64,000 nt of DNA from Thermoplasmatota archaeon (GCA_029939595.1 JAOZSQ010000002.1:2761-66760), one strand, 5' to 3'. Positions 13,615-46,270 are shown, numbered from the stretch's first letter. The notes: generated by a model not told the origin, from the sequence alone. Numbers and translations: made by a program.

Positions 13615-13684
13615 ATAGTACATAATATATTCATTATCCTTAATAAAATATACGGAAATTTTTATATCTGAATATTTGATTTTT

Positions 13685-27681: not shown

Positions 27682-27742
27682 TTATAAATTATCGTACTAT
27701 TATAACATTATTGATATAAAAAAATAAGAAGTTGAGATGTAT

Positions 27743-28351: not shown

Positions 28352-28458
28352 GTTCTATCACTTCATCCCTCCTTTTTGTCATTTTTTTTATATATGCATT
28401 TACCAAAATTTATACCAAAAGAGGCCAAAATGATACCCAAATTCAACCTAAATCATGC

Positions 28459-28950: not shown

Positions 28951-28973
28951 TGTATATTACTCTCCTATTTCTA

Positions 28974-29279
28974 CTACTTCTTTTTTTTCCCAATTTTTCC
29001 CCAAATCTCATGAAAAAATTCCTCATTTTTTTCTAATAAATCAGATGGAAAATACATTATGCCATACCCTGAACCAGTGTGGGTGATAAGATTATTTTTT
29101 TCCAGAACTTGAATATGATGTCGAACTGTTTTATAATCAAGATTAACTTTTTTTGAAAGTTCATTGGCATTATATGGCTGTGCCCATAGGACTTCAAGAA
29201 TTCTCCCACGGTTAAACCCACCAGAAGAACCACTGAGTAACCACCAGAGAAGTCGTTTTACACCGTGCATGCCATACAA
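28974..29279 (-). CDS. Small winged-HTH transcriptional regulator (ArsR/PadR-like)
   Basis: RILEVLWAQPYNANELSKKVNLDYKTVRHHIQVLEKNNLI is a canonical wHTH recognition region. Confidence 0.5.
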   Translation of the reverse strand: MYGMHGVKRLLWWLLSGSSGGFNRGRILEVLWAQPYNANELSKKVNLDYKTVRHHIQVLEKNNLITHTGSGYGIMYFPSDLLEKNEEFFHEIWGKIGKKKK

Positions 29280-29407
29280 CCTTTAAATATAGAAAATAGC
29301 AATATGTTATAAATCATTTGTTTTTTTAAAATAACAAGTTCGGCATAAGTCGTAAAATACCATCTAAAATAATATAAATACCTTCATTTCTTAAAAAATA
29401 AGGTGAT

Positions 29408-31015
29408 TTGGAAGAAATGAAAAAAATGATATTTGTCAATTTAGTATCTCTAATTATTATCACTTTAATATTAATACAACCTGTATCCTCAAACATATCT
29501 TGTTCACAGAACGAAATAATCATTGTGGATAATGAAGGAGATGGTGATTATCAAACCATACAACAAGCAATAGATAATGCAAATTCGGGCGATATAATCC
29601 AAATATATAGTGGAATTTACAATGAGAAACTAATCATTCAAAAAGAAAGAATCACACTTAAAGGAATTGATCATGAATTGGGAGCTGGAACTGATACTGA
29701 ATATCCAATCATCAATGGAGATCAGATTGGAAATGTTATCGAAATATATGGAAAACATTGTCAAATAACATCATGTATCATCCAAAATAGTGGACATGGT
29801 ATTTTTGATGCAGGAATTTTCATTCTTTCAAATGAAGTAATAATATCTGCAAATGGAATTGTTAGTAATCAGTATGGTATTCTTGTAAATAATTGTACTG
29901 AAAACATTATAGAAAATAATTACATTCTTTCAAACACTATGGATGGGATATACCTTCTTTTCACAGAAGAAAACATCATTTCAAATAATATCATTAGGGA
30001 AAATGGTTTCCAAGGAATGTTTATGTATGAGGCAAATAAAAATACCATAACTGAAAACACTTTTTCACTGAATGGTAAAGATGGTATTCATCTAAGGAAT
30101 ACCTGTATGAACAATGAAATAACAAAAAACATAATTCATTCAAATAGTATCGATGGAATAAAAATAATGGATTCAAATGTTTATTATAATAATTTAAACA
30201 ATAATGAAATTTATTCAAATGGCTGGAATGGGGTTCATATTGTCAATGGACAATCAAATATCATATCCGATAATATGATTTATTTAAACTTATTAAATGG
30301 AATTCAAATTGGAAACGCAGATAACAATAGAATCATACGAAATACCATCCAAGACAATAAAGAAGAAGGCATTGTCTTTTTGTTCTCAGGATCTCAAAAT
30401 AATCAAATATACTATAATAATATAATTAATGATAATGCATTTGATGGTGGAAAAAACATATGGGATGATGGAAGAGATGCCGGGGGAAACTACTGGTCAT
30501 ATTACAAGGGGTTAGATGTGGATGGAGATGGCATTGGCGATACACCTTATATTATTGAGGGAATGGGAAATATGGATAATACACCATTCATTGACCCTTT
30601 ATATCCGCCTCAAACTCCAAGTCAACCAAGAGGGCCTACAATTGGAGTACCCGGAACAAGTTACACATATAGAACAACTTCATCAGATAATCTGCACAAT
30701 AAGATACAATATGGGTGGGATTGGAATGGAGATGATGTTGTGGATGAATGGACTTTTTTTTATTCACCTGAAGAACCATGTGAAACATCTTATATTTGGA
30801 ATCAAAATGGAACATATCAAATAAAAGTGAAAGCAATGGATGATCAGGGTTTTCAAAGTGATTGGTCACAACCATTATCAATTACGATGCCAAAAGATCC
30901 AAAAAACAAAATAGACATTATAGGAAATTTCATATTCAACTTTTGTCAACAGATTCTATATCGTATTTATGCTATAATTGTGGCTGACCAACAACCAAAT
31001 ATTGCAAAATACTAG
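29408..31015 (+). CDS. Secreted parallel beta-helix (NosD/CASH-like) protein ending in a PKD-like domain and an aromatic amphipathic C-terminal tail
   Basis: Signal peptide present. PbH1 repeats are present. The CASH C-terminal motif is DVDGDGIGDTPY. The PKD-like block is WDWNGDDVVDEW...NGTYQIKVKAMDDQGFQSDWS. The tail is PKDPKNKIDIIGNFIFNFCQQILYRIYAIIV. Confidence 0.65.
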   Translation: MEEMKKMIFVNLVSLIIITLILIQPVSSNISCSQNEIIIVDNEGDGDYQTIQQAIDNANSGDIIQIYSGIYNEKLIIQKERITLKGIDHELGAGTDTEYPIINGDQIGNVIEIYGKHCQITSCIIQNSGHGIFDAGIFILSNEVIISANGIVSNQYGILVNNCTENIIENNYILSNTMDGIYLLFTEENIISNNIIRENGFQGMFMYEANKNTITENTFSLNGKDGIHLRNTCMNNEITKNIIHSNSIDGIKIMDSNVYYNNLNNNEIYSNGWNGVHIVNGQSNIISDNMIYLNLLNGIQIGNADNNRIIRNTIQDNKEEGIVFLFSGSQNNQIYYNNIINDNAFDGGKNIWDDGRDAGGNYWSYYKGLDVDGDGIGDTPYIIEGMGNMDNTPFIDPLYPPQTPSQPRGPTIGVPGTSYTYRTTSSDNLHNKIQYGWDWNGDDVVDEWTFFYSPEEPCETSYIWNQNGTYQIKVKAMDDQGFQSDWSQPLSITMPKDPKNKIDIIGNFIFNFCQQILYRIYAIIVADQQPNIAKY

Positions 31016-31151
31016 TAATCAAAAAGACATTTGTTCAATGAAAATCCCGGATTTCTATGCAAGGAATACTGTTTTAAGCACTCTGCGATCTAGAATTGGA
31101 ATTATTAGTCAGCCTCAATTTTATATGCATTATAATAGAATATGTCTGAAT

Positions 31152-32189
31152 TCAATTTCTAAATGAAAAGATATTTCCAAAGATATTACTTATGGACCTT
31201 TCTATGATTAATTTAACAATATTGTTAAAAAACCGATTTAAAGCATACTTAGTAACATTTGACATAAAATCTGAGAATTTGCTTTCATGTATATGAATTG
31301 TAATTGTTTCAATATCCGAATTTCCATCTTCATCAGTTACGTTAAGTGATACTTGATAGATTCCAGGAATCCAGAATATGTGGGAGGGATTCTGTTCAGT
31401 ACTTTCCTTGTTTTTTGGAAGAAATCCATCATCAAAAAACCAATGATATGAATGATTACCATTATCGCTATCTAAACAATCACCATAGAAGTTTATTTTC
31501 TTTGGTGCTTTTCCGCTGATACTACTAGATGTTAGAATGGCATGAGGAATGTATTTTTCAATAACATTGATCTCAATGGATGTTGTTACTTCAATTCTAT
31601 TATCAAATGAAACAGTTAGCCAAACATAATATGATCCTGTTTCATTAAACCAGTGTATTGGATTTTGGATGTCTGATGTTGAACCATCTCCAAAATCCCA
31701 GTGGTATGAAGAGATCTTACGTTCAAGATCATATGCATTTCCTGAAAAATTAATCAATAATGGAGATTTTCCAACGGTTTTATTAGTAGTTATTGATGCA
31801 ATAGGTTTCTGATAATTTACAACATCGATTTCAATAGTATCGCTTGATTTTGCTCCTGCATTGTCCCATACCGTAATTGTTGCAAAAAAGGTTCCTTGTT
31901 TAGAATATGTATGTCTAATCATTTCTTTATCTGATTCCGAACCATCTCCAAAATCCCATAGAACTTTTTTTATATCTCCATCTTGATCATTATGAAAGCA
32001 AGAAAATGAAATAATTAATGGTGCAGTTCCATATGAAACATCTGCTTGTGCTTCTACAACAGGAATAATATTTTCTTTGAATGATTGACCAATAGTAATG
32101 CTTAGTGCGGATGTTATAATAATGATGCAAACAAATAATGCTAATGTTTTATTTTCCATATGCCCTCGCCATTGAATCTTGATAATCAA
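31152..32189 (-). CDS. Secreted protein with three PKD domains and a C-terminal amphipathic tail
   Basis: Three WDFGDGS/WHWDFGDGSTS PKD cores are present. The tail is KFSDFMSNVTKYALNRFFNNIVKLIIERSISNIFGNIFSF. Confidence 0.65.
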   Translation of the reverse strand: MIIKIQWRGHMENKTLALFVCIIIITSALSITIGQSFKENIIPVVEAQADVSYGTAPLIISFSCFHNDQDGDIKKVLWDFGDGSESDKEMIRHTYSKQGTFFATITVWDNAGAKSSDTIEIDVVNYQKPIASITTNKTVGKSPLLINFSGNAYDLERKISSYHWDFGDGSTSDIQNPIHWFNETGSYYVWLTVSFDNRIEVTTSIEINVIEKYIPHAILTSSSISGKAPKKINFYGDCLDSDNGNHSYHWFFDDGFLPKNKESTEQNPSHIFWIPGIYQVSLNVTDEDGNSDIETITIHIHESKFSDFMSNVTKYALNRFFNNIVKLIIERSISNIFGNIFSFRN

Positions 32190-32386
32190 AATATAATAAT
32201 ATCATATAAATATTTTGAATATATTAAAAACAAATTAAAAATAATAAAATCTTTTGGAGGTTAAAATTTTATTCAAAATTAACTTATAATACAATTGATT
32301 TCTTCAAGATTATTTACATTATTAACAAATAAATATGGAAAAGTTTATATTGATAATCTCATAATAACTAATATTGTTGTGAAAAA

Positions 32387-33088
32387 ATGAAAAAAACAAT
32401 ACTAATTGGTCTAAGTTTATCTTTATTTGCAATTCTTCTAATACCATCTGTTCCTGCAGTAGAATTATCCTTGGTTAAAGATGAACAAATAAAGACAATT
32501 ACTGAACAATTTTCAATAATTAGTCAAATCAGTGATTTTCATGAAAACGATCTTTTAGATAAACAAACAACAGATACTTTCAATTTATATTTTGAAGAAA
32601 TAATCAATAATTTTGAAAAAAAAATATTTGAATCTGATGCTGACGTTGGAAATGATGAGGGCGGTGAACCACGATTTTTCCCGTTTCTAGGGATTTTTAT
32701 TTATCTAGCGATTGCTTATGTTCTTCTTGCCATTAGTGTAATTGTCCTAAGGTTCATTGGAGGCGGAATTAGAGGCATCTTTCAAGGGATTAAATTAAAA
32801 ATTCTACAGTTCATAGGTTCTATTATTTCTATTGTAAGTTTTATTATAACTCTTGCTTTAAATATTGTAAAAGGTGCATTATCAACAGGCCTTAAAGTTG
32901 GAACATTTATTCTTGATGTTATTCTACTTATCTTTACTGGTATTTTTACAGTATTACTAATATTAATTCAAGGTATTGGAAATATTATTGCAGATATATG
33001 GAATGGAATTGGAACAATACTACAATTTATTTTGGAGATTATTAGTGTAATCATTGAGACAATATTTCCCAACATAGGTGTTAATTAA
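32387..33088 (+). CDS. Hypothetical membrane protein: signal peptide, soluble acidic domain and Gly/Ile-rich TM helices
   Basis: Hydropathy pattern only. Repeated I..GIG.I motifs occur in the C-terminal half. Confidence 0.35.
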   Translation: MKKTILIGLSLSLFAILLIPSVPAVELSLVKDEQIKTITEQFSIISQISDFHENDLLDKQTTDTFNLYFEEIINNFEKKIFESDADVGNDEGGEPRFFPFLGIFIYLAIAYVLLAISVIVLRFIGGGIRGIFQGIKLKILQFIGSIISIVSFIITLALNIVKGALSTGLKVGTFILDVILLIFTGIFTVLLILIQGIGNIIADIWNGIGTILQFILEIISVIIETIFPNIGVN

Positions 33089-33128
33089 CAATAAGAAATA
33101 TTAAATGGCTTTCATTGAAATAAAATAT

Positions 33129-33809
33129 TTATTTTTTCTCAGTTGATTTCTTCTTTTTTAGATATGGGACATTTGTTCTCTTATTATAACTGATTTCATA
33201 CTGTTTAGGCTTAGTACAAGGAGTTCCTTTTTCCGAAGATCCCTTACTAAAATAATATAATGTTTGCATTGTATCATTGCGCATCTTTATCTGTTGTTTA
33301 TTAAGAATATAGTCACCAATCTGTAAGAACTCAGGTTCTAAATCTTCTATTTCATCCTTTGATGTTTCTAATGGTATAAAAATAGATATGACATGTGACA
33401 TTAATAGATACATAAGTGCGACTAATGATGCAGTAAATAAGAGATAATAAATTAAAATATTTTCTTGATAATATAAAACCGAGGAAAGATTATAAATTAA
33501 TGAAAATGTGAAGAATCCAACTATAGTATAGTATGAACCGCGCTTTTGATTCAAGAACCCATATGGAATAATTCCTAGAATAATAAAATTTAAGATAAGT
33601 TCAAGACTAAATAGAATCGAAAAAAATGATATTGAAGTTAATTCTTCAATTTGTCCATTGACAAAACCAAAGAAGAAAACATGGAATAATAGGTTTATAA
33701 AACTCAACAATAATAATAGAATCATTGGTCCTAAGATACTTTTTGAACTTGATGATAATGTTTCTTTTACCATAAAACCACCCATATAATGGTAAATAGA
33801 TTTAACCAT
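33129..33809 (-). CDS. Hypothetical polytopic membrane protein with a basic C-terminal tail
   Basis: Five or six hydrophobic helices. No catalytic signature recognised. Confidence 0.35.
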   Translation of the reverse strand: MVKSIYHYMGGFMVKETLSSSSKSILGPMILLLLLSFINLLFHVFFFGFVNGQIEELTSISFFSILFSLELILNFIILGIIPYGFLNQKRGSYYTIVGFFTFSLIYNLSSVLYYQENILIYYLLFTASLVALMYLLMSHVISIFIPLETSKDEIEDLEPEFLQIGDYILNKQQIKMRNDTMQTLYYFSKGSSEKGTPCTKPKQYEISYNKRTNVPYLKKKKSTEKK

Positions 33810-33877
33810 AAAAACCTTCCTTTCAATAACATAAAAATTAATGAATTTAAAACCAGAGATAAAAAATGAAAGTACGA

Positions 33878-34600
33878 TTAGAGTTTCTTTGCAGGAATCC
33901 CTACATACATATTTCCTGAGATTAATCGTTGTTTTTTGGTTACAAGGGCACCGGCAGCAACTGTTACATTATCTTCAATGATTGCACCAGGCATGATAAT
34001 TGCTCCTGCACCAATCACACAATTATTTCCAATTGATACTGGATCTATAAGTATAGTTCCTTTTTCAAAATTATGTATATGGCCATAAATGATTGCATAT
34101 TCGCCCATTGTTGAATTCTTTCCAAACGATGTAACACAAGGATCTTTAATTACTCCACCAACTAGTGTATTTTTTCCAATTTTCATCCCCAATAATCGAA
34201 AATATGTATTTTTTAATCGACCAATTGGAATAATTTCTAGAATTTTTCGAATTGGTGTATATATTGATACTATAATCATCCATTTTAAAACATTTTTTTC
34301 ATGAGTTGAATATGGATAAGAACCAGGCATGTAATAAATATTAAATATTTTGATTATTAAACCTGAGAGGAATATTTGAGATAGCAGTAAAATAGATATT
34401 CCAAAATAAACAATAAATGGGAGAAGTAAAAGGGTCCAGTTAATGAAAGTAAAAGGAATAAAAATTTTTATGAATAAACAATAAAATATTATGGGAATAA
34501 ATCCAATTGAAAATATTATTATGCTTGAAAGTGGTATTATAAGGTAGGATAACAGGAATTTTTCTTCATTGTTGTGATCCTTTTTTTGTGTTGTCATCAA
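33878..34600 (-). CDS. Membrane-anchored hexapeptide-repeat (left-handed beta-helix) acyl/acetyltransferase
   Basis: Hydrophobic helices occupy the N-terminus. The C-terminal hexapeptide repeats are GNNCVIGAGAIIMPGAIIEDNVTVAAGALV. Confidence 0.6.
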   Translation of the reverse strand: MMTTQKKDHNNEEKFLLSYLIIPLSSIIIFSIGFIPIIFYCLFIKIFIPFTFINWTLLLLPFIVYFGISILLLSQIFLSGLIIKIFNIYYMPGSYPYSTHEKNVLKWMIIVSIYTPIRKILEIIPIGRLKNTYFRLLGMKIGKNTLVGGVIKDPCVTSFGKNSTMGEYAIIYGHIHNFEKGTILIDPVSIGNNCVIGAGAIIMPGAIIEDNVTVAAGALVTKKQRLISGNMYVGIPAKKL

Positions 34601-34759
34601 AAAAATAACATCTAAAAGGAAGTAATAAAATTAATGATTTAATTAGAATTATTGAAGAGAATAAATGTGTTAGAATGTTATAATTTTAATTTTTTGTAGA
34701 ATAACAACATTTATAATTCATAATGACCATAATTTATTTGGACAAATGAGTAATGCACA

Positions 34760-36355
34760 ATGGGGACAAAAAAATTAATTTCAATAATGCTTGTATTATT
34801 AATGTTTTCATCAATTTCTCAAATTGGAATTGCAACTCAGAAAACAAATCCACAATTAAAAGATTCAATTAAAGAAAAACTTGATCTTATACAAGATGCA
34901 ATTAACGATAAAAAAGCAGATTGGGTTGCTGGTCATAATAATATTTTTACAGATAAAATAGATTTTATTGAAGAGTTTCTTGGATGCAATCTCAATGAAA
35001 GTGAGATTATTAATCAAGATGAACCAATTTCAACTTCTGATCTTCCAGCATCTTATGATTGGAGGAATGTTGATGGATTGAACTATGTAACTTCAATAAA
35101 AAATCAAGCAAGTTGTGGAAGTTGTGTGGGATTTGCAACTATTGGTGCATTAGAGGCTGTTGTTCAAATTGAGGCAGGAGAAATTTTTGATTGTGATTTA
35201 TCAGAATCACATTTATTTTTTTGTGGTGGAGGTTCTTGTGGTGGAGGATGGTTTCCAGAAGAAGCTACTGATTTTGTGGAAAATGTAGGAGTAGTTGATG
35301 AACTCTGTTTTCCATATAGTTCTTATGATTTAAACTGTGATCAAAAACAATCAAATTGGAAATCGCGAGTAATTAAAGCAAAAAATACTGGATCTACCTC
35401 AGAAAATCAAAATATAAAAGATGCATTAATTACATATGGACCTCTTTTAACAACATTTAAAGTTTATGATGATTTCAGTAGTTATAATGGGGGCATCTAT
35501 GAGCACGTATGGGGAAATCAAGTTGGAGGCCATGCAGTAGTAATCATTGGTTATAATGATGATCCGGGATATTGGATATGTAAAAATAGTTGGGGTGAAG
35601 GTTGGGGTGAAGACGGATTCTTCAATATTAAATATAGAGAATGTAAAATAGATAAAAAGGTATATTTCTTTGATCAAATAATTGGAAATATTCAACCCTC
35701 AAAACCTAAAATCATTCAACCAATAAATGGGGAAAATTCTCTTGATACAGATATTACTCTTCAATGGGATCAAAGTTATGATATTGATGGAGATTTTATT
35801 TCATACGCTGTTTATTTAAATGAAGGTCATAAAATTGATTTAGATTCAGAACCAATTGTATCAGGACTAGCAACAAATTCATATGAAATCAATAAATTAA
35901 AAAAAGACACAATTTATTCATGGCAAGTTGTTTCAGAAGATGCACAAGGATCTCAACATAGCGTTGGAAAAAATTTATTTTTCACTCGATCGCCATTTGC
36001 GCCAATAATATCAGGCCCTAAACAAATTAAAAATGATAAATCCTATACATATATTGCCTCAACTGAGGATACTGATGGATCAGAATACTATTGGTTTTTT
36101 CAATGGGGTGATGATGAAAATTCAGGTTGGCTAGGCCCATATAATTCAGGTGAAAAAGTAAGTGCGAGCCATACTTGGAGCGATGATGGAGATTATACTA
36201 TTAAAGTTAGATATAAAGAAGATGGTATTGAAAGTGATGTGGGTTCGATAGAGATAAGCAACACAAAAACTAGAACGGGTTTTTTTAATTTCATTTGTGA
36301 GTTTTTAAATCACAATTTACTAAAATATTTTTTTCCACAACAATTATTTTTATAA
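34760..36355 (+). CDS. Secreted papain-family (C1A) cysteine peptidase followed by an FN3/PKD-like region and the shared PKD-like C-terminal module with tail
   Basis: Signal peptide present. The active-site Cys is QASCGSCVGFA, the His is GGHAVVIIGY and the Asn/Trp is KNSWGEGWG. The C-terminal block is FQWGDDENSGWLGPYNSGE...DYTIKVRYKEDGIESDVGS. The tail is KTRTGFFNFICEFLNHNLLKYFF. Confidence 0.75.
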   Translation: MGTKKLISIMLVLLMFSSISQIGIATQKTNPQLKDSIKEKLDLIQDAINDKKADWVAGHNNIFTDKIDFIEEFLGCNLNESEIINQDEPISTSDLPASYDWRNVDGLNYVTSIKNQASCGSCVGFATIGALEAVVQIEAGEIFDCDLSESHLFFCGGGSCGGGWFPEEATDFVENVGVVDELCFPYSSYDLNCDQKQSNWKSRVIKAKNTGSTSENQNIKDALITYGPLLTTFKVYDDFSSYNGGIYEHVWGNQVGGHAVVIIGYNDDPGYWICKNSWGEGWGEDGFFNIKYRECKIDKKVYFFDQIIGNIQPSKPKIIQPINGENSLDTDITLQWDQSYDIDGDFISYAVYLNEGHKIDLDSEPIVSGLATNSYEINKLKKDTIYSWQVVSEDAQGSQHSVGKNLFFTRSPFAPIISGPKQIKNDKSYTYIASTEDTDGSEYYWFFQWGDDENSGWLGPYNSGEKVSASHTWSDDGDYTIKVRYKEDGIESDVGSIEISNTKTRTGFFNFICEFLNHNLLKYFFPQQLFL

Positions 36356-36467
36356 TTTGGCAGATTTCCATAAAATAGAACAATTCAATATAATAAATAA
36401 CATAATTAAAAATTTAAAAAGTATATGCATTATTTTTTATAATAATGATAATTTAAAAACTATTGAA

Positions 36468-36720
36468 CTTTTTGGATGTAATCACAAATACGATAATTTT
36501 TTTTTACGATTCGTTTAAATTTTTAATAAAAGCCTTCATATAATATGTATCATAATTATAGCTGTGGTAATAATTAGTAGTGGAATCATATGTAATGTCA
36601 AGAAAAATATTAATTGTTTATTATTACATTTATATATTTCCCTTCTTGTTTTCATATACGCCCCTCCACTCTAATTATATTACCAATATAATCAAAATTA
36701 TAAATATCATTATCTATAAT
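36468..36720 (+). repeat. Copy A (orphan) of a ~230-bp repeated upstream/leader element
   Basis: It shares the blocks ttacgattcgttt(t)aaatttttaat.aaagccttcatata, ggtaataat...gtagtgga.t.atatgt, and ttcc.ttcttgttttcat.t...cccc.ccact..aa...atattacca with copies B and C. No ORF follows it. Confidence 0.7.
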
Positions 36721-36777
36721 AAAATTATGATTTTAAAAAACAATAAAATTTAAAGATAAAAATGATTGAATAAGCTT

Positions 36778-37018
36778 ACTTTTTGGATGTAATTACAAAA
36801 AGATTATATTTTTTTACGATTCGTTTTAATTTTTAATGAAAGCCTTCATATATTTCTTAATATCATTGTGTGTTAATACTAACGGTAATAATGATGTAGT
36901 GGATTAATATGTTTACAAATATTAAGGCTAATATTCCTAACATTGTAATATTTCCTTTCTTGTTTTCATGTTTACCCCGCCACTACAACAATATTACCAA
37001 AAAAATAGGGGGTCATAA
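36778..37018 (+). repeat. Copy B of the ~230-bp repeated element, immediately upstream of the 37019 BNR-protein gene (includes the GGGGG Shine-Dalgarno-like site)
   Basis: Same conserved blocks as copy A. It ends in aaaaatagggggtcataaATG. Confidence 0.7.
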
Positions 37019-38641
37019 ATGACAAAAAAAAGAAATTTTAATATGAAAAAAGTTATAATGTTAGGCGTAGTAATGATGCTTTGTTTAACGGCAATTCAAT
37101 TTGGAACAGCATCAGAAGAAATAAATGAAAATGATTTAACGATAAAAAAGTTAAATTCAGTTAGGCAACATAGAGAAGTATCATTAAAATCTGAAAAATT
37201 AACAAAAGAAAAACATATTCAAAATGATTACAACTCAATTGCAATTAATGGTAACATGCCAATTATGATCACAGAATCTGATTGTCAAAACCCTGTTATT
37301 GCAACAGATGGAAATAATATTCTTGTAATGGCCGAGGAATATCAAGGCTCAATGTCATCTGATTTAATAATGACTTATTCATCAGATGCTGGAAATACCT
37401 GGTCAGATTTATCTGGTTTTATAACAGAAGATATATTTGAGGAAAAAGCATCAATTGATTATTGTCACAATGGTGAATTTCAGGCATATGGTACATATTT
37501 ACCAGATCCAATGGTTGGAACATTATCTTTAATTCATTTTCCAAGTATGATTGATCCAGAAATGGCCTATAAAGATTCAGAAGGTTGGACAATGTGGTCT
37601 CTTGATCTTTCAACGTTTAATGATTTTTATAGTATAGATGTTGCAGGATATCCTCATGGATCAATTGCACCGGCACCAGATTTCCATGGTGTCGTAACAG
37701 TGATTGGCAATAATGAAGATGGTGAAACAATAGAAAATTTTTATGAGACTGAAGGTAATGGGATAGGTGCATGTTTTTTATCATTTGTAGGGGATTTAGG
37801 AGATAAAATATCTATAGATATTGACATTTCAACAGCAACATATTATGAGGCAATGGAGCTGAGTAATGAACCAGACATGATTGAAGATGGAGTATTTTTA
37901 GAATCATGTTGGGTTGAGCCTGGAAATGAAAACTGGTGGGAAAATGATTGGCCAGTATTTATTTTTGAAGGAGCACATAATCCTGATATCGTTGCAGGTG
38001 GTGGTAGTTGTTATTGTGTCTGTGAAGTTGGAAATGACATCGTATGTTATTATTCAAATGATAATGGTGCAAATTTCCAATCAAAAACTATAGCAAGTAA
38101 TGGAAAATATCCTGCTGTTTCAATAATAGATAACACTGTAATTTGTTCATTTACTCGAGATAATAACATTTTTACAGTTGTTTCAAAAGATAATGGAAAT
38201 ACGTGGGAAGAAACAAAGATAAATGATGTAAGTGGAAGTGCAATTGAGCAGATGCAATGTACTGATGTTTCAGGTTCAAATGTGGTCTGGACCGATGATA
38301 GAAATGGTAACTATGGAGTATACATTAGTAGTGCAGCAGAAGTAGAATTCCCAATAGTAGAAATTCAAAGTATTTCTGGAGGTTTTGGTCTTTCTGCAAA
38401 CATTATAAACTCTGGTACCGCTGATGCAAATGACATTGATTGGAGTATAGCTTTTGATGGTGGCGTTTTTATTGGCGGTGAAACATCTGGAACAATTCAA
38501 ACTCTTGCAGCAGGAGAAAGCACAACTGTTAAAACTGGATTAGTTTTTGGAGTTGGAAAGACTGATATAACAATATCTGTTGGTTCTGCATCTGAACAAA
38601 GATCTGGAAATGTTTTTCTATTTTTTGTACTAGGGATATAA
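37019..38641 (+). CDS. Secreted BNR/Asp-box repeat protein (sialidase-like beta-propeller) with a C-terminal CARDB-like region
   Basis: Signal peptide present. Asp-boxes are YSSDAGNTWSD, SNDNGANFQS and SKDNGNTWEE. The C-terminal block is VEIQSISGGFGLSANIINSGTADANDIDWSIAFDGG. Confidence 0.55.
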   Translation: MTKKRNFNMKKVIMLGVVMMLCLTAIQFGTASEEINENDLTIKKLNSVRQHREVSLKSEKLTKEKHIQNDYNSIAINGNMPIMITESDCQNPVIATDGNNILVMAEEYQGSMSSDLIMTYSSDAGNTWSDLSGFITEDIFEEKASIDYCHNGEFQAYGTYLPDPMVGTLSLIHFPSMIDPEMAYKDSEGWTMWSLDLSTFNDFYSIDVAGYPHGSIAPAPDFHGVVTVIGNNEDGETIENFYETEGNGIGACFLSFVGDLGDKISIDIDISTATYYEAMELSNEPDMIEDGVFLESCWVEPGNENWWENDWPVFIFEGAHNPDIVAGGGSCYCVCEVGNDIVCYYSNDNGANFQSKTIASNGKYPAVSIIDNTVICSFTRDNNIFTVVSKDNGNTWEETKINDVSGSAIEQMQCTDVSGSNVVWTDDRNGNYGVYISSAAEVEFPIVEIQSISGGFGLSANIINSGTADANDIDWSIAFDGGVFIGGETSGTIQTLAAGESTTVKTGLVFGVGKTDITISVGSASEQRSGNVFLFFVLGI

Positions 38642-38740
38642 TAATTATCCCACATCTTCTTTTTTTTATTTTCAACATAATAATGAACCATATTGGGAAA
38701 ATAATTAATATAATTTGAATGAAACAACAAAAAAATAAAA

Positions 38741-38955
38741 AATTTTTACTGTTTGTTTAAAGATTCAATAAAAGCGTTCATATATTTGTTATTATGATTA
38801 TAATATAATAATATTGGTAATAATCATGTAGTGGATTATATGTATATGCAAGATGTCAGACATAGTATCAAGTCATAGAAATTTCGCTTTCTTGTTTTTA
38901 TATTTACCCGGCCACTACAAAAATATTACCAGAAAAATTAGGGGGTAAAAAATAA
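38741..38955 (+). repeat. Copy C of the ~230-bp repeated element, immediately upstream of the 38956 BNR-protein gene
   Basis: The conserved blocks are aaagcgttcatata, ggtaataatcatgtagtggattatatgt, and ttcgctttcttgtttttatatttacccggccactacaaaaatattaccagaaaaattagggggtaaaaaataaATG. Confidence 0.7.
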
Positions 38956-40587
38956 ATGAAAAGAAAACAAATTGGAAAATGGGCTATATCATTATTAATC
39001 ATTGGATTAATGATAACAAGTACTCTTGTAATGCCCGCAGAAGAGGCAGAAAATAACGAATTTGCAAAAACATATGAAAAACTTGAAGTAAAAAAGGTTA
39101 CCAATAAGTTTTCATTTGTATCAGATTCATTGGAACTAAATAAAATAACAAAAGCATCATATTTACCAAGAGAAATAAAAAATCAAATTGGTATTGATCT
39201 TCCTATACTGGGTCTTGAAGGAATGGATGTATTAAATCCACATTTAGCAACAGACGGTGGAGGAAATATTTTGTTAGCTGGTGAAGGTTATGAAAGTTCA
39301 TTTAATTCTGATATTTATTTTAGATCATCAATAGATGGTGGACAATCTTGGTTACCCGAAGATGGTACAATCTGGTTTGATCTTGCTAGTGGAGGCATAA
39401 TTCCTGAAAAACCGGTTGTAGATTATTCAGGTGATTTAGGGGCTATTGGATCATTTTTACGATTAAATCCTGAGGGAATTCCCCAGTTTGACTTCGATAG
39501 CATTACTGACCCTGAAGCAGGCGATGGATGGCAACTATTAACATGGAATGATAATGATGAAGTTGATAGCATTGATGTTTGTGGTTGGAATAGTCAGTTT
39601 TCACCTGCTCCAGATTTTTCAAAAGGAATGATAGTATACACAGCAGATGATGATACTACAACCAACGTGATGCATCTTTTATGGTCAGACAGTGAAACAG
39701 GTGGTCAAAGTCTTTGGACTGGAAGTGGAGATGCAGACTATGAATGGGAAAATGTTAAGACTGATAACGATCTAGTAACGGGAATGCATTGGGAAGTATA
39801 TGAAATTTCATCAAATCAAGGAGAATTTGAACCAGGTATTGAGATTGAATGGTGTAGACTTGATGGAACAAATGATTGGTGGCAAAATAATGATTGGTAT
39901 GCAACAGATGTAATTGAAGGGGCAAGTAGTCCAGATATTGATTCAGCAAATGGAAAAATGTATTGTGTCTTTGAGTTAGATGGTGGTATTTACTGTGCAT
40001 ATTCAAATAATGATGGTGGAAATATTGACGTAATGGAGTTATCATCAACTGGAACAAACCCACATGTATCAATAGCAGGAGATAGTGTAATTATTACTTA
40101 TATCGATAATGGCAATCTTATCTCAGCTATCTCTGAAAATTCAGGGTCAAGTTGGGAAGAGAGCACTGTTAATGATGAAAGTGGAACCGTGATGGATGAT
40201 ACTCATAGTTCTCATATTGCAGGAGGTTATATGGCATGGACCTATGAAGGGTCAGAGTATACCTCACTTCTTTTTGATGTGGCGGGTGTTGATGTACCAA
40301 TCATAGAGATTGAAAGTGTATCTGGAGGTTTTGGGGTAAACGCAGTTATTGCAAACACTGGAACAGCAGACGCAACTGATGTTGATTATTCAATAACGGC
40401 AACCGGGGGAATTTTAGGAATGATCAATAAAGAATCTAGTGGAACAATATCGGTTAATGCAGGAGGGTCACAAACAATTTCGTTACCAATGATCATTGGA
40501 GTTGGTGCAGTTACCATTGAACTTATTGTTGGATCTGCTAGTGAAACTATCTCGGGAACACAACTATTTGTCTATACAAATATATAG
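38956..40587 (+). CDS. Secreted BNR/Asp-box repeat protein, paralog of 37019..38641
   Basis: Asp-boxes are RSSIDGGQSWLP and SENSGSSWEE. The C-terminal block is IEIESVSGGFGVNAVIANTGTADATDVDYSITATGG. It is collinear with the preceding paralog. Confidence 0.55.
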   Translation: MKRKQIGKWAISLLIIGLMITSTLVMPAEEAENNEFAKTYEKLEVKKVTNKFSFVSDSLELNKITKASYLPREIKNQIGIDLPILGLEGMDVLNPHLATDGGGNILLAGEGYESSFNSDIYFRSSIDGGQSWLPEDGTIWFDLASGGIIPEKPVVDYSGDLGAIGSFLRLNPEGIPQFDFDSITDPEAGDGWQLLTWNDNDEVDSIDVCGWNSQFSPAPDFSKGMIVYTADDDTTTNVMHLLWSDSETGGQSLWTGSGDADYEWENVKTDNDLVTGMHWEVYEISSNQGEFEPGIEIEWCRLDGTNDWWQNNDWYATDVIEGASSPDIDSANGKMYCVFELDGGIYCAYSNNDGGNIDVMELSSTGTNPHVSIAGDSVIITYIDNGNLISAISENSGSSWEESTVNDESGTVMDDTHSSHIAGGYMAWTYEGSEYTSLLFDVAGVDVPIIEIESVSGGFGVNAVIANTGTADATDVDYSITATGGILGMINKESSGTISVNAGGSQTISLPMIIGVGAVTIELIVGSASETISGTQLFVYTNI

Positions 40588-40783
40588 ACAACCTCTCTTT
40601 TTTCTTTTTTTTATTAATGATTGAAAAAATATTTGTAAATATTTATATATGTTGAAAAAAAATAATATATATTAACATTATTTGTAATAAATTACAAAAT
40701 TTAATAACTAATTTAACATTTGTTCAAAAATATAATCAAAAAATATTTATTGTAGTTCTTATCATAATATATATGGAGATATT

Positions 40784-42202
40784 ATGAAAAAAAAATTGGT
40801 TGTTTGTATAATAATAAGTCTATTTTTAATTAGCTATATTCCTTCGGGTTATGCGTTAATAAATAATCAGAGTATTGATCAGATGGAAAGAGGTCAATAC
40901 AAGTTGGTTGATAAGAACACTTTTTCAAAACAAAATTTAGAACATGGATTAATGAGGCCTGATGGTAACACGTTAAAAGAATGGAAAGAAGATTATTTTA
41001 AGGCAGAAAAAGCATATATTAATCCAAAATTAGCAAATAATATCATTGCAACTTCAAGTTATAGTATTTTAGATCTGTTGAATTATGTACCATCTGAAAG
41101 AAATCAGGGTTGGTGTGGAAATTGTTGGGCGTGGCCTGCTACAAGTGTTGTTGAAATCGCCCTCAATGTTCAAGAAGGGATTTATGAACGTTTATCTGTA
41201 CAATATATAAATTCTTGTGGATCTCAGGTGGGCGTAGGTTGTTGTGATGGAGGAAACCTAGATATTTTCTGCAGGTTTTATCGAAAAACAGATATAACGA
41301 TTCCATGGTCAAATACAAATGCGGATTGGCAAGATAATAGGGCTCAATGTGATACTTCATGCGATAGCATCTCAACAACACCATATTATCCAATATCTTC
41401 AATTTATGCAAGAACAATTGAAACACATGAAATTTCAGAAGAACAAGCAATTTCAAATATAAAAAATATACTTCATCAGCAGAAAGGCGTCTATTTTAGT
41501 TTTATATTGCCCGATGATGAATATCTAACTCATTTCAATGATTTTTGGAGTGATCAAAAAGAGGAAGATGTGTATAATATTGACTGGGCATGTGGTAAAG
41601 AATATATTGAAGATGAAGGTGCAGGTCATGCTGTTTTATGTGTAGGATACAACGATGAAGAGGGTATAGAAAATGATTATTGGATTATGCTGAACAGTTG
41701 GGGTATCACATCTGATAGATCCACAGGATTATTTCGTATGAATATGCATATGGATTATGATTGCACAATTGTTTATCAGAATCATGATTACTATTCATTT
41801 GATTTTGAAACATTAAATGTAACATTTACATCAGATGATGGAGCACCAAACCCTCCTGAAATACAAGGACCTAGCTCAGTTAAAAAAGATGAATCGAATA
41901 CATATCAAATAACAACAATAGATGTTCAAAACGATGAAGTATTTTATAAAATTGATTGGGATGATGGAACGGTAGATGGTTGGATTGGTCCATATTTGTC
42001 AGGTGAAACCATTGAAGTAAATCATTCTTGGGCAAAAAAAGATACTTATGTTATACATGTAAAAGCAAAGGATATCAATGAAGATGAAAGTCTTTGGTCT
42101 ACATTTGAAGTTAGTTTGTCAAAGAGAAAAGACATGGATTTTACATGGATACAATGGTTGTTTCAAAGAATCAATATTCTTTTTCCTTTTATTGTAAAAT
42201 AA
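40784..42202 (+). CDS. Secreted papain-family (C1) cysteine peptidase with the shared PKD-like C-terminal module and tail
   Basis: The active-site Cys is NQGWCGNCWAWPA, the His is AGHAVLCVGY and the Asn/Trp is LNSWG. The C-terminal block is KIDWDDGTVDGWIGPYLSGETIEVNHSWAKKDTYVIHVKAKDINEDESLWS. The tail is KRKDMDFTWIQWLFQRINILFPFIVK. Confidence 0.7.
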   Translation: MKKKLVVCIIISLFLISYIPSGYALINNQSIDQMERGQYKLVDKNTFSKQNLEHGLMRPDGNTLKEWKEDYFKAEKAYINPKLANNIIATSSYSILDLLNYVPSERNQGWCGNCWAWPATSVVEIALNVQEGIYERLSVQYINSCGSQVGVGCCDGGNLDIFCRFYRKTDITIPWSNTNADWQDNRAQCDTSCDSISTTPYYPISSIYARTIETHEISEEQAISNIKNILHQQKGVYFSFILPDDEYLTHFNDFWSDQKEEDVYNIDWACGKEYIEDEGAGHAVLCVGYNDEEGIENDYWIMLNSWGITSDRSTGLFRMNMHMDYDCTIVYQNHDYYSFDFETLNVTFTSDDGAPNPPEIQGPSSVKKDESNTYQITTIDVQNDEVFYKIDWDDGTVDGWIGPYLSGETIEVNHSWAKKDTYVIHVKAKDINEDESLWSTFEVSLSKRKDMDFTWIQWLFQRINILFPFIVK

Positions 42203-42341
42203 AGGGAAATTCTTCCCTTCTTTTTTTTAAATTCTTATCATTACTATAATAATTTATAATATTAAAGTTTTCTAATTAAATTTATTTTTTAGGGAAATAA
42301 TAAATAATTAAAAATATATTCACATTATAAGTGAAAATGCG

Positions 42342-43232
42342 ATGAACAAAACAAACATATCAATAATTATTCTAATTTTGATTTTACTAGTAACACAATT
42401 TCAAGGTTGTATTACTAATGAACCCACTGATAATATATTTTATGAGAAGAATACATTTTATGTAGATATCGATGGTTCAACAAACTTTAGTTCAATTCAG
42501 AATGCAATTAATGCAGCACCGGCTAATTATACAATCTCTATCTTAAATGGGCATTATAAAGAGAACTTGATAATAAACAAACCATTAACGATAGTGGGTG
42601 AAAACCCTTTAACAACGTTTATTGATGGAAATGACACAGAAGATGTAATAGTTATTAATAATGATAGTGTAACGATCTCAAATTGTAGCATTTTTGGAAG
42701 TGGAAGAACTCAAAATGATGCAGGCATCCATATTAATTCTAAATATGTAATTATTAAAAATAATATAATATATGATAACAAATGTGGAATTTATGCAAGA
42801 ACTGCATCTTATGCTGATATTAATAATAATACTTTCAAATTAAACAATGAATATGGGGTTTATGTATATTCTTCATCAAATACAAAGCTTATTGACAATG
42901 AATTTTATTCAAATGATTGTAGTTTAAGAATCAAAGGATCTCAACATTGTGAAGTAATCCGAAATCGATTTAATGATAGTATGCAGGGGATGTACTTTTG
43001 TTGTGGAGCAAAACAAAATACAGTTTATCACAATACATTTCTAAATCATACTAAATGGAATGCAGATGATCAAGTTGGATCAAATAGTTGGAATAGTATA
43101 AATCTTTCAGAAGGTAATTATTGGGATGATTACTTTGGGGTGGATGAAAATGATGATGGTATTGGTGATAGTGCATACAATGTTACAAATACTGGCAGAA
43201 AAGATTTTTTCCCTTTAATGAATCCAATATAA
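42342..43232 (+). CDS. Secreted/lipoprotein-like parallel beta-helix (NosD/CASH-like) protein, short form lacking the PKD+tail module
   Basis: Signal peptide with FQGC (lipobox-like). PbH1 repeats present. The C-terminal motif DENDDGIGDSAY is homologous to the 29408 protein. The protein stops right after the CASH motif. Confidence 0.6.
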   Translation: MNKTNISIIILILILLVTQFQGCITNEPTDNIFYEKNTFYVDIDGSTNFSSIQNAINAAPANYTISILNGHYKENLIINKPLTIVGENPLTTFIDGNDTEDVIVINNDSVTISNCSIFGSGRTQNDAGIHINSKYVIIKNNIIYDNKCGIYARTASYADINNNTFKLNNEYGVYVYSSSNTKLIDNEFYSNDCSLRIKGSQHCEVIRNRFNDSMQGMYFCCGAKQNTVYHNTFLNHTKWNADDQVGSNSWNSINLSEGNYWDDYFGVDENDDGIGDSAYNVTNTGRKDFFPLMNPI

Positions 43233-43354
43233 AAATTATTATTTTCATTTATTCTTTTTAAAATATGAATGATGCAATAATATTAATCAACAATTTGTTA
43301 TTGTGAATTGTAAAAATGAAAAAAAGAAGAGAATTAAAATTCCAAATTATCTAT

Positions 43355-43945
43355 TTATAAAAATGTTTGAAATAGATTAAACAGAATTGGAAAACGTTCA
43401 AAAAATATTGTACTTAACTTGTTCTTTGGTACAATTGCAGCACCCAATGCGCTTGTTTCATTATGATATAATGGAACAATATTCCCATAGGCGACATTTA
43501 TTGAAAGAATTAATGATTCACCTCGATTAACTTCTACATCATTCAAATAAAGTGATCCTGATTTTTGTGTAGGAGTCTGTGTAATATTTAAAGATATATT
43601 TTCATTATCAAGAGATAATGCCAAAGTAATTATTCCTTCATCAGTTAAACTTTCACAATTCATGTCATAATCAATATAAAAATCAACAATTTCACTTTTG
43701 GAGCTAATTTTTATAAGAAGATTAGATTCAACAGAAGCATCTAAAACACTTGAGGTTCCATTTCCCCAAATCGAGGCATATCCAAGATATATCTCTTCAT
43801 TATTTGTTTTGTATGTTGTAATAGCGCTGTTTGCATTAATTCCACTGCAAAATATTGAAATCATTAAAAATGCTACAAAACCCGAATATAAATATCGACT
43901 ACTTTTTTTCATATCAATTAACCTAATGATATTAATATTATACAT
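43355..43945 (-). CDS. Secreted hypothetical protein
   Basis: Signal peptide/N-terminal anchor present. No recognisable domain. Confidence 0.35.
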   Translation of the reverse strand: MYNINIIRLIDMKKSSRYLYSGFVAFLMISIFCSGINANSAITTYKTNNEEIYLGYASIWGNGTSSVLDASVESNLLIKISSKSEIVDFYIDYDMNCESLTDEGIITLALSLDNENISLNITQTPTQKSGSLYLNDVEVNRGESLILSINVAYGNIVPLYHNETSALGAAIVPKNKLSTIFFERFPILFNLFQTFL

Positions 43946-44083
43946 CTATTTAAATGTATTTAGATTGTTTAAATAAAGCAAAATTCTTTCTATAATATAA
44001 TTAATCAGATTTTTATGATAAACAATCAAATTAGTAAAATTATATATATTAACAAAATATATTAATTATTAGGTATCTGACAC

Positions 44084-46270
44084 ATGAATAAAATTTATTA
44101 TTTATTTATAATTATAAGTTTATTAATTAATTCATCCATTGCCATTAGCCTTAATCAAGATGAAGATTTAAAAATAATATATAACTTTGATTCTCCTTCA
44201 TTTCAAAAGATACAGATAAATGGAACAATTTATGATGAGATCACAATTCCAAATCTTTCAACGATGGCAGACCCTGGATTACCAAGTTTGCCTATAAAGG
44301 GTGGTTATATTAGTATACCATATAATTCAAATGTTAAAAGTATATCTGCAACATATTCTAACCAGATAAACTTAGGGAAAGGATTTATTATAAAACCAGG
44401 GTCAACACCCGTTCCAATGTCACATCAAGAACAAGCCCAAGCACCAATTGCAAATACTCAAATTTATACATCTGATACTATGTATCCAGGGACATTATAT
44501 TCTGAGATTGGAACTTATAAATGTAAAGGATTTGAAATTCTTGTTCTTACGTTACATCCTATTCAATACATACCTAAAACTGGAGAAATAATTTTTTATT
44601 CCTCTATCGAAATTACTATTGAAGTTTCAGAAAAACAGAATAATTATTTAGAATCACGAGGCTTAGAAGAAGATATAATTCAAATTAATAATATGGTTGA
44701 TAATCCCCAAATATTGAATTCATATCCTCTAAAAACAAAAACAACATCAATGGAATCTTATGATTATCTTATTATTACTACTCAGGAATTAAAAGAAGGA
44801 TTTATCCCATTACAACAGACACAAGAAAAAAGAGGGATTAAAACACAAATAAAAACACTTCGTGATATTACTTTAACTCCGAATTATATAACACCAGAAG
44901 ATATCAGAGAATATATAAAACAGCAATATCAACATAATGGAATTGAGTATGTATTAATTGGTGGTGATGCAGATATTGTACCTGCAAAAATGCTTTATGT
45001 CTATGGACTTGATGAGGAGAAATGGCCATATGAAACATTTTTACCTTCGGACTTGTATTATTCTTGTTTAGATGGAACCTATAATAATGATGGGGATGAT
45101 CGTTGGGGTGAACCAACAGATGGAGAAAATGGAAATGATGTTGATCTTTTCGCTGAGGTATATGTAGGTAGAGCAAGTGTTGGGGATTTAATTGAAGTAG
45201 GATATTTTGTAAATAAAACTATCTCTTATTTATCCACCTCTAATTCTAATGAGTATATCAATACATTTCTTATGGCAGGGGAATATCTTGGTAGCCATGG
45301 TGTTGCTAGTTGGGGTGGAAATTATCTAGATCTTCTTATTGATGAGGCATCTGAAGATGGTTATATAACATCCGGCATTCCTTCTGAAAAATTTCAAATT
45401 AATAAATTATACGATCGTGAAAATGAATGGACTGCAAATGATATGATCAATGCAATAAACGATGGTGTTCATGTAATAAATCATGATGGACATTCTAATT
45501 ATGGGTATAATATGAAGATGGTAAATGGTCATGTTTATTCATTAACAAATGATGAGTATTGTTTTGCTTATTCAGTTGGATGTATGGCAGGTGGCTTTGA
45601 TGATCCTCAAGGGTCTGACTGTTTTGCTGAATATCTTACTGTAAAAACTGATCATGGAGCATTTGCAGCTATCATGAATGCAAGGTATGGTTGGTTTTGG
45701 TCTCATAGTACTGATGGTGATGGAACAAGATTTGCACGTGAATTTTGGGATAGTGTTTTTGGTGAAAAAACACCTGTGATAAGTAAAGCAAATCAAGATT
45801 CAAAAGAAGATAACCTGTATCTCATAGGTCGTTCTTGTATGAGGTGGACATATTATGAATTAAATCTCTTTGGAGATCCAACTATTTCACTTCGTGTAAG
45901 TGAACCCCCAAATACACCAGATATGCCAAATGGACCTCAAACTGGAAAAATAAAAATAAATTACGAATATGCAACAACTTCAATTGATTCTGAAGGGGAT
46001 GATATATATTATCTCTTTAATTGGGGAGATGGAACGTATTCTGAATGGCTTGGCCCTTATTCTTCAGGGGAAGAAATCAAAGAAGAACATCAATGGCTTG
46101 AACATGGCGATTATCAAATACAAGTGAAAGCAAAGGATGAACATGGTGCAGAAAGTGAATGGTCAGATTATCTTATACTAAACATTCCAAAAAATAAAAA
46201 CATTCAATTTCCGTTTCTTGAATGGATTATAGAACAAATTTATTTTCTTAAAATGTTTTTTCTTAATTAG
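44084..46270 (+). CDS. Secreted clan-CD (C25 gingipain-like) cysteine peptidase with an N-terminal propeptide-like region and the shared PKD-like C-terminal module with tail
   Basis: The His block is VINHDGHSNYGY and the Cys block is FAYSVGCMAGGFDD. The C-terminal block is FNWGDGTYSEWLGPYSSGEEIKEEHQWLEHGDYQIQVKAKDEHGAESEWS. The tail is PKNKNIQFPFLEWIIEQIYFLKMFFLN. Confidence 0.65.
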   Translation: MNKIYYLFIIISLLINSSIAISLNQDEDLKIIYNFDSPSFQKIQINGTIYDEITIPNLSTMADPGLPSLPIKGGYISIPYNSNVKSISATYSNQINLGKGFIIKPGSTPVPMSHQEQAQAPIANTQIYTSDTMYPGTLYSEIGTYKCKGFEILVLTLHPIQYIPKTGEIIFYSSIEITIEVSEKQNNYLESRGLEEDIIQINNMVDNPQILNSYPLKTKTTSMESYDYLIITTQELKEGFIPLQQTQEKRGIKTQIKTLRDITLTPNYITPEDIREYIKQQYQHNGIEYVLIGGDADIVPAKMLYVYGLDEEKWPYETFLPSDLYYSCLDGTYNNDGDDRWGEPTDGENGNDVDLFAEVYVGRASVGDLIEVGYFVNKTISYLSTSNSNEYINTFLMAGEYLGSHGVASWGGNYLDLLIDEASEDGYITSGIPSEKFQINKLYDRENEWTANDMINAINDGVHVINHDGHSNYGYNMKMVNGHVYSLTNDEYCFAYSVGCMAGGFDDPQGSDCFAEYLTVKTDHGAFAAIMNARYGWFWSHSTDGDGTRFAREFWDSVFGEKTPVISKANQDSKEDNLYLIGRSCMRWTYYELNLFGDPTISLRVSEPPNTPDMPNGPQTGKIKINYEYATTSIDSEGDDIYYLFNWGDGTYSEWLGPYSSGEEIKEEHQWLEHGDYQIQVKAKDEHGAESEWSDYLILNIPKNKNIQFPFLEWIIEQIYFLKMFFLN

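Follow-up and report, generated by a model that had tools for sequence, protein, structure and literature searches.

A conserved amphipathic C-terminal tail on secreted proteins of Thermoplasmatota, a candidate surface-retention tag

In the genome of a Thermoplasmatota archaeon, four unrelated secreted enzymes encoded close together end in the same pair of elements: a PKD-like domain and, behind it, a short amphipathic tail. Their genes lie at positions 29,408 to 46,270 of the 64,000-nucleotide stretch that we analysed (GCA_029939595.1, JAOZSQ010000002.1:2761-66760), called here the window. A preliminary description of this DNA had treated the shared end as one module; the element is indeed common to the four enzymes, and it falls into two parts that can occur apart. 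Of these, the PKD-like domain is already known from a solved structure and is a true homologue of the PKD type. The tail is autonomous, separable from that domain and, in domain libraries and searchable papers, undescribed. With moderate confidence, we propose that these ~25-35 residues following the last folded domain constitute a C-terminal surface-retention (docking or sorting) tag of Thermoplasmatota, read by a common component of the envelope.

A conserved tail at the end of diverse exported proteins

In its canonical form the tail reads ...MP(K/x)N(K/x)-linker-FLxxLxERFP(N/H)AFP(I/L)LRxLLG(Y/L)-COOH, as in the peptide NFPLLNWLFERFPNAFPILRHLLGY. Relatives of the module that ends the C25 peptidase of the window follow a similar pattern: DPLxVxMP(K/R)N(K/R), a linker of 3-8 residues, an amphipathic helix with (E)(R/H)(F)P..F(P)(I/L)L(R)..LL.. 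and the stop codon. The invariant residues (E, P, F-P and L-R) are found in the middle and at the end of the tail; its start, P-(K/R/V)-(N/S)-(K/R/Q), is variable.

The conservation of this motif is far beyond chance. Among 1.84 billion representative proteins, a profile built from the tail only (32 positions) matched 1,191 at E<=1e-3, of which 34 also passed E<=1e-10, the best of them reaching E 1e-16. The C-terminus is at most 5 residues away in ~145 of the best 150 matches, and the named sources are almost all Thermoplasmatota. At the DNA level, a degenerate pattern for ERFP[NH]AFPxLR returned at least 120 metagenome stretches. The motif stood at the protein end in 121 of the 122 in-frame matches, with exactly 5 residues after the arginine in 85. 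The module of PKD domain and tail was confirmed at 383 genomic loci; the 80 loci that were kept come nearly all from metagenome-assembled genomes (MAGs) of Thermoplasmatota/Thermoplasmatales, including SG8-52, SM1-50, M9B1D, M11B2D and JdFR-43 of MBG-D (Marine Benthic Group D). Single genomes hold many copies: at least nine in MAG JAUWWG, five in CP070836 and four in MUGC. A profile search of the shared protein ends had been suggested in the preliminary description; the one made with the tail extends the element from a handful of neighbouring genes to 1,191 representatives.

In three cases, P0179 (693 amino acids, aa), P0289 (152 aa) and L200:527-2527, a canonical tail stands directly before another signal peptide or protein, and a second tail is present in two of them. 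We rejected these as internal tails: they look like fusions of two adjacent tail-bearing genes, which could stem from the loss or misreading of a stop codon or from faulty assembly.

Proteins with the tail are diverse and appear to be exported. A hydrophobic N-terminal segment was detected by a simple heuristic in 90.5% of 74 complete proteins, and all four window enzymes start with a signal-peptide-like segment. Cargo was taken from censuses of genomic loci and from a search of representative proteins; a separate tail-only protein search, which returned only proteins of at most 83 aa, was used for significance and taxonomy and not for cargo. The Pfam census seeded with the PKD module (71 proteins, 27 families) comprises C25 peptidases (25), PAD_porph (4), M14 (2) and M28 (2), with single cases of C1, PepX_C, a transglutaminase-like domain, DUF4185, DUF7901 and PQQ propellers. 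The census seeded with the tail (88 proteins, 48 families) comprises PQQ-type propellers (15), C25 (6), NosD/beta-helix (6), fn3 (6), FG-GAP (5), C1 (3), arylsulfotransferase (3), C10 (2), S8 (1) and others. PKD matches (PF00801/PF18911) occur in 36-41 proteins of each census. One carrier is the sole C25-like open reading frame (ORF) on M9B1D_scaffold_577, and the C25 gene of that contig is listed among the most highly transcribed peptidase genes of MBG-D (PMC6461988).

Judged by eye, ~80% of the tails are preceded by the same PKD subtype. Elsewhere the last domain before the tail is Ig-like (...D.C.IDVSLxTP), BNR-like (...FCFKTYFRKP) or made of beta-propeller repeats.

The tails are amphipathic and not transmembrane-like, as had been noticed at the outset for the hydrophobic part of the window proteins. 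With the cut-off for a transmembrane (TM) segment set at a 19-residue Kyte-Doolittle mean of 1.6, the best means of the window tails, 0.65-1.44, fall below it; among 74 related tails the median is 0.87 and 2.7% reach 1.6. The last 25 residues of related tails contain a median of four charged residues, and the hydrophobic moment of the tails is 0.44, vs 0.32 in shuffles. A TM anchor was therefore rejected on hydropathy and charge. A signal of the glycosylphosphatidylinositol type, with a small omega site, a polar spacer and an uncharged stretch, was rejected as well: the tails keep E, R and H/Q inside their hydrophobic part and have no conserved small-residue site.

In predictions by AlphaFold2 (AF2), a canonical tail has a helix of 9 residues and then one of 7, interrupted at HPHMF (pLDDT ~70), and the window C25 tail is a single helix of 18 residues. 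Structure prediction had been proposed as a check on the tail, and its outcome is a helix in one case and a helix-turn-helix in the other; the canonical fold is predicted to be helix, P-x-x-F-P turn, helix.

A basic patch had been regarded as part of the module. It is present in the window proteins, where basic residues do precede the hydrophobic part, and it is incidental and does not define the tail: MP is followed by at least two K/R in 55% of the closer relatives of the window but in only 17% of canonical tails. The latter often have MP(F/C/Y)SY(N/E)(I/P)P linkers and end in ...LLG(Y/L), with no terminal basic cluster.

The tail has no Pfam match at E up to 10, and at that limit no NCBIfam model matched the window tails, the canonical tails or the proteins as a whole. 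Models of the NCBI 'Loki-CTERM/Heimdall-CTERM' type, considered as candidates, were rejected on this result, and 'Loki-CTERM' was not found in searchable papers. No description of the tail turned up in the searchable literature, covering tail strings, 4XED, MBG-D genomes, archaeosortase with Thermoplasmat* and archaeal C-terminal sorting. The initial concern that the module might be an already characterised domain thus holds for its PKD part, known from 4XED, and not for the tail, absent from both databases.

Likeness of tails within genomes and how the tail may act

In MAGs with several tail genes, tails resemble one another more within a genome than between genomes (normalised score 0.359 vs 0.194, permutation p<=0.0005). 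With the largest MAG left out the values are 0.244 within and 0.174 between, and such leave-out tests reject dominance by one MAG as the cause. The adjoining PKD domains show no such effect, with 0.537 within and 0.555 between genomes (p=0.85). When residues were shuffled inside each tail, the difference fell to 0.003+/-0.003 from an observed 0.153. Since shuffling abolishes the effect, the likeness is one of motif and not of composition, and a bias due to low GC content was rejected as its origin. The fact that tails are alike within genomes and the adjacent PKD domains are not suggests a common, genome-encoded recognition partner.

We propose the following sequence of events for the surface-retention tag. 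Proteins would be exported through Sec by means of their N-terminal signal peptides. The tail, predicted to fold into two short amphipathic helices round the P-x-x-F-P turn, would then hold the protein at the surface by docking, on the outer side of the membrane, to an envelope component that the genome encodes and the tails share, with the PKD-like domain probably placed between enzyme and tail as a stalk or spacer; its solved structure, 4XED, and its internal tandem copies point to that role. More tentatively, the tail may be the signal of a new sorting or surface-display system specific to Thermoplasmatota, in which a dedicated receptor or processing enzyme reads the helix-turn-helix tag (ERFPNAFPILRxLLGY-COOH). 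Such a system would be architecturally unlike the signals of sortase, exosortase, archaeosortase, rhombosortase and myxosortase.

Several points weigh against the proposed tag. No partner gene is conserved beside the tail genes among 1,137 ORFs clustered from 201 loci; the only recurring neighbours there are tail-less secreted paralogues and helix-turn-helix regulators. Two longer genomic contexts contained no convincing partner, the M50 peptidase met in this search being 7 kb off on a fragmented contig. Gene conversion confined to 3' ends could also make tails similar within a genome, which we regard as less likely. The association of ~80% of tails with one PKD subtype makes an intramolecular role with that domain possible. 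Finally, because the family profile finds some of the window tails weakly and others not at all (see below), their homology is carried mainly by position and context.

In related Thermoplasmatota contigs, two neighbours of tail genes, L032:838-2700 (-) and L148:1559-4222 (+), have classical PGF-CTERM signals at their ends (PGFELMLLILAILLLLRKRN; PGFELIFVLSAIIVAIFLWRKRRIV). Archaeosortase-type sorting hence coexists with the tail.

The tail might instead be a cleaved sorting signal, which a dedicated peptidase or transpeptidase removes as it links the protein covalently to a lipid or an envelope polymer, in the manner of sortase, exosortase or archaeosortase; the enzyme might read, for instance, the region of the P-(K/V)-N-(K/Q) start or the free LLG(Y/L) C-terminus. 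On the side of the cargo the tail does look like a sorting tag, as was first suggested: its location, its copies per genome, the signal peptides and the diversity of its carriers all agree with one. The fixed distance to the C-terminus and the co-variation of tails by genome agree with it too, and so do the cargo classes C25, PAD_porph and M14, which in Porphyromonas bear the C-terminal domain (CTD) of the type IX secretion system (T9SS). We nevertheless hold this to be unlikely. The tail has neither a hydrophobic stretch of TM length nor a terminal Arg/Lys cluster, and its most invariant residues lie in the middle rather than at the start. No processing enzyme had been recognised in the window, and our scan for Pfam archaeosortase and rhomboid models in its ORFs of at least 150 aa bears this out, with no archaeosortase, rhomboid or CPBP match; nor is any conserved enzyme near the tail genes in the 201 loci. 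The PGF-CTERM proteins of related contigs indicate, moreover, that the classical system is already there.

An anchor that needs no partner would fit the negative neighbourhood search. An amphipathic hairpin could lie in the interface of the outer leaflet, its basic residues touching lipid head groups, in a cell membrane that possibly has no wall; comparable cases would be the C-terminal helix of PBP5/6 from E. coli and hairpins like those of fusion peptides. Amphipathic and rich in aromatic residues and Leu, the tail has neither the length nor the hydrophobicity to cross a membrane; basic patches are common in the window's clade, and the window lineage tolerates a degenerate sequence and keeps the physicochemical pattern. 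A salt bridge within the hairpin could link the conserved E to the conserved R 10 residues away. However, the strict P-x-x-F-P, E, R and C-terminal register exceed what lipid binding needs, and an order-specific homogenisation within genomes is unexpected for a helix that binds lipids only, so that we doubt this reading about as much as that of a cleaved signal.

Homogenisation across unrelated cargo would also be expected if the tails bound one another. In that case hairpins of different proteins would bundle into multi-enzyme degrading complexes, resembling cellulosomes with no separate scaffold; the amphipathic helices are too small to be stable alone, and many degradative enzymes per genome bear the tail. 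The frequency of non-enzymatic cargo, such as propellers and FG-GAP proteins, argues against such complexes, to which we give very little credence.

A dedicated sorting or display system of the kind considered above would present dozens of exoenzymes per cell, including highly expressed gingipain-like peptidases, the supposed drivers of protein degradation in the marine sediment. Few sediment archaea are as abundant as MBG-D/Thermoprofundales and related Thermoplasmatota, which are believed to make their living by breaking down protein outside the cell; to our knowledge, none has been cultured. A conserved tag on C25, C1, C10, M14, M28 and other secreted cargo bears on how these archaea keep their exoenzymes, and the products of these, near the cell. 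In practice, it would offer a simple sequence handle on the surface proteome in metagenomes, a target in the search for a partner or sorting enzyme, and a peptide for biochemistry. It would widen the known prokaryotic C-terminal signals beyond the design of motif, TM helix and basic tail, and provide a new domain model for more than 1,000 protein clusters that are now named 'hypothetical' or 'PKD domain-containing'.

The PKD-like domain and the genes of the window

All four ORFs are found where first described, with every quoted string present, and Pfam confirms their identities: a beta-helix protein, two C1 peptidases and a clan-CD peptidase, all on the plus strand. The first gene (29408..31015) encodes a NosD-like beta-helix protein of 535 aa (Pfam NosD 1e-29, Beta_helix 5e-25) with a signal-peptide-like N-terminal segment. 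Its divergent PKD-like domain (aa 409-495, 30632..30892), placed in the family by an alignment of the four modules, has a weak Pfam PKD match of 3.6e-3 and is followed by the tail KDPKNKIDIIGNFIFNFCQQILYRIYAIIVADQQPNIAKY (aa 496-535, 30893..31012), with a best 19-residue Kyte-Doolittle mean of 1.44.

The first secreted papain-like C1 peptidase (C1a; 34760..36355, 531 aa) matches Peptidase_C1 at 9e-48 and fn3 at 3e-7; its PKD-like domain (aa 419-501, 36014..36262) is supported by PKD_4 at 9e-4 and by the four-module alignment, and its tail is TKTRTGFFNFICEFLNHNLLKYFFPQQLFL (aa 502-531, 36263..36352). In the second secreted one (C1b; 40784..42202, 472 aa, Peptidase_C1 2e-16), the PKD-like domain (aa 362-446, 41867..42121) has no Pfam PKD match and comes from the four-module alignment; the tail is KRKDMDFTWIQWLFQRINILFPFIVK (aa 447-472, 42122..42199).

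The fourth gene (44084..46270) encodes a secreted gingipain-family C25 peptidase of clan CD with its propeptide (728 aa; Peptidase_C25 7e-53, Propeptide_C25 6e-15). Thermoplasmatales archaeon ex4572_165 has the identical protein, named a 'hypothetical protein' (OYT29886.1). Its PKD-like domain (aa 617-702, 45932..46189; Pfam PKD 5e-6) is predicted by AF2 as a beta-sandwich with pLDDT >95, and its tail, KNKNIQFPFLEWIIEQIYFLKMFFLN (aa 703-728, 46190..46267), as a helix at model residues 94-111; the model of the whole module, a beta-sandwich, a linker and a helix, has a pLDDT of 92.

Pfam PKD matches are thus weak (5e-6 to 6e-3) and present in three of the four modules. The shared block is a homologous PKD-type domain all the same: the C25 module aligns with PDB 4XED at a Foldseek E of 1e-8, with 44% identity and a root-mean-square deviation of 1.1 Å, and phmmer gives E 1e-18. 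4XED is the PKD domain of an M14-like peptidase from Thermoplasmatales archaeon SCGC AB-540-F20 (MBG-D). The beta-sandwich and the WxxGDG...H.Y...G.Y.V.L.V.D pattern of PKD domains were found in the domain before the tail and not in the tail. The crystallised chain of 4XED (99 aa) ends ~6 residues past the last strand and does not include a tail, so the PKD domain does not need the tail to fold. Relatives also have this PKD subtype as tandem copies inside the protein, with a tail behind the last copy only (L012, L057, L059).

The four modules share a mutual identity of merely 34-36%, which excludes recent domain shuffling among these genes, an explanation that the preliminary description had itself raised against a sorting signal. 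Its other reservation, that orthologues might lack the tail, was not borne out either. Every orthologue of a PKD-less 196-aa protein of the window, down to 40% identity, retains the tail, and so does the C25 homologue P0001, a fragment that is 88% identical.

This 196-aa protein (43355..43945, minus strand) is secreted, has no Pfam domain and ends in ...VPKNKLSTIFFERFPILFNLFQTFL; its tail, KNKLSTIFFERFPILFNLFQTFL (aa 174-196, 43358..43426), keeps the ERFP core of the canonical motif, which supports homology. A further possible member, with qualification, is a secreted protein with three canonical PKD domains (31152..32189, minus strand; PKD_4 1e-47), whose end, SKFSDFMSNVTKYALNRFFNNIVKLIIERSISNIFGNIFSFRN (31155-31283), may be a divergent and longer amphipathic tail with a hydrophobic moment of 0.53. 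In a small local database, a hidden Markov model (HMM) of the family tail matched the C25 tail (E 0.008), the 196-aa protein (0.4) and C1b (1.7), and gave no match for the beta-helix, C1a and three-PKD proteins, which leaves the membership of the last uncertain. Counted in this way, the window has five to six tail copies within 17 kb. Its tails appear to be degenerate members of the sharper motif ERFPNAFPILRxLLGY: in this lineage, the motif has decayed to an amphipathic helix rich in F, I and L behind PKNK-like basic residues.

That poor sequence conservation of the window tails, together with the ~80% of tails, by eye, behind one PKD subtype, is what would be expected if the tail had no dedicated function and were an inherited appendix of one PKD subfamily spread by shuffling, or if it only helped the domain before it to fold or to stay stable. 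This is highly improbable in our judgement: the tail also follows other types of domain and a PKD-less protein, internal PKD-like copies go without it, the 4XED construct was solved without it, orthologues keep it, and its motif is strongly conserved, in a fixed C-terminal register, over the 1,191 representatives.

Three more gingipain-family C25 peptidases are encoded in tandem at 10645-15952 on the minus strand (10645-12075, 12181-13701 and 13685-15952). All three are without the tail: two have nothing behind the catalytic domain (their end is ...GDPSL.IGGY), and the third closes with a PKD and another domain. C25 paralogues with and without the tail hence coexist, possibly as anchored and released forms. 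Farther along the minus strand, 46428-50132 encodes a secreted protein of 1,234 aa with relatives in three loci and a weak PPC domain as its sole Pfam match. Given the likeness of its C-terminus (...VIFGDPTLQVYNPTW...) to the ends of C25 catalytic domains, the protein is possibly a C25-like enzyme of giant size and great divergence.

Other secreted proteins are interspersed with the tail-bearing genes. A paralogous pair of ~540 aa (37019-38641 and 38956-40587, both plus strand) has faint BNR/sortilin-like matches, a common Ig-like C-terminal domain (...ADANDIDWSI...) and no tail. The product of 32387-33088 (plus strand), 233 aa long, combines a signal peptide and an acidic region with a C-terminal half that is rich in glycine, very hydrophobic and made up of several helices, and has no Pfam match. 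Another secreted family without a Pfam match (56933-58492, minus strand; L022:4002-5555, minus strand) carries a conserved C-terminal ...W(Y)xLWPW(I/G), different from the tail, and adjoins tail-bearing genes in five loci.

Two neighbouring secretion ATPases of the T2SSE/FlaI type (588-4467, minus strand) fit a type IV pilus or an archaellum-like system, and nothing found here ties them to the tail. The cumulative GC skew of the window has its minimum near 28-30 kb (~26000-34000); genes are mostly on the minus strand at 588-25732 and mostly on the plus strand at 29408-46270. These features may reflect mere strand-bias bookkeeping or else a landmark of replication.

Comparison with known systems

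The nearest structure, 4XED, belongs to the same PKD subfamily, archaeal group and kind of secreted peptidase as the domain preceding the tail. The tail is neither visualised nor discussed for that structure.

Criteria for C-terminal sorting signals have been set out by Haft (bioRxiv 10.1101/2023.06.07.544157). In agreement with them, the tail sits at the C-terminus, occurs in multiple copies per genome on unrelated cargo with signal peptides, and is missing from some homologues of its carriers; it does not show a motif at its start, a hydrophobic segment of TM length or a terminal basic cluster. With these three architectural features missing, the tail is not a member of the tripartite class, though it may work similarly. 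That class (LPXTG/sortase, PEP-CTERM/exosortase, PGF-CTERM/archaeosortase A, GlyGly-CTERM, MYXO-/CGP-CTERM) also consists of short tags at the extreme C-terminus of signal-peptide proteins, many per genome, on unrelated cargo with untagged homologues, and restricted to lineages. The difference lies in the tail itself, predicted as two short amphipathic helices with neither TM stretch nor basic end.

The T9SS CTD of gingipains, PPAD and CPG70 is close in its cargo: it too marks C25 peptidases, Porphyromonas-type peptidylarginine deiminase and M14 carboxypeptidase at the C-terminus, and an Ig-like beta-sandwich stands beside the signal in both systems. In contrast, the CTD is itself a beta-sandwich of ~80 aa, read by PorU/PorV of the outer membrane, and the tail is ~30 aa long and helical, in an archaeon without an outer membrane. 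No window protein matches the T9SS CTD models of Pfam or NCBIfam.

In its physical character the tail recalls the anchors of E. coli PBP5 and PBP6, each a terminal amphipathic helix on an exported enzyme, too polar to span the bilayer; the moment of the tails (0.44 vs 0.32) places them with this trait. Those anchors are single helices with no conserved motif, on one enzyme family, whereas the tail is a predicted helix-turn-helix motif across dozens of families.

Docking modules of the dockerin-cohesin and SLH kinds differ in size and fold. Dockerins are duplicated Ca-binding modules of ~70 aa, and the tail, at 25-35 aa, has no likeness to them in sequence or predicted structure; the dockerin family (PF00404) has no Pfam match in the tails at E up to 10, nor in whole window proteins, and no cohesin-like partner was identified. 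In organisation the resemblance is close: like the tail, these modules are C-terminal elements on many secreted enzymes of one organism, and their sequences are lineage-specific, which fits co-evolution with a partner.

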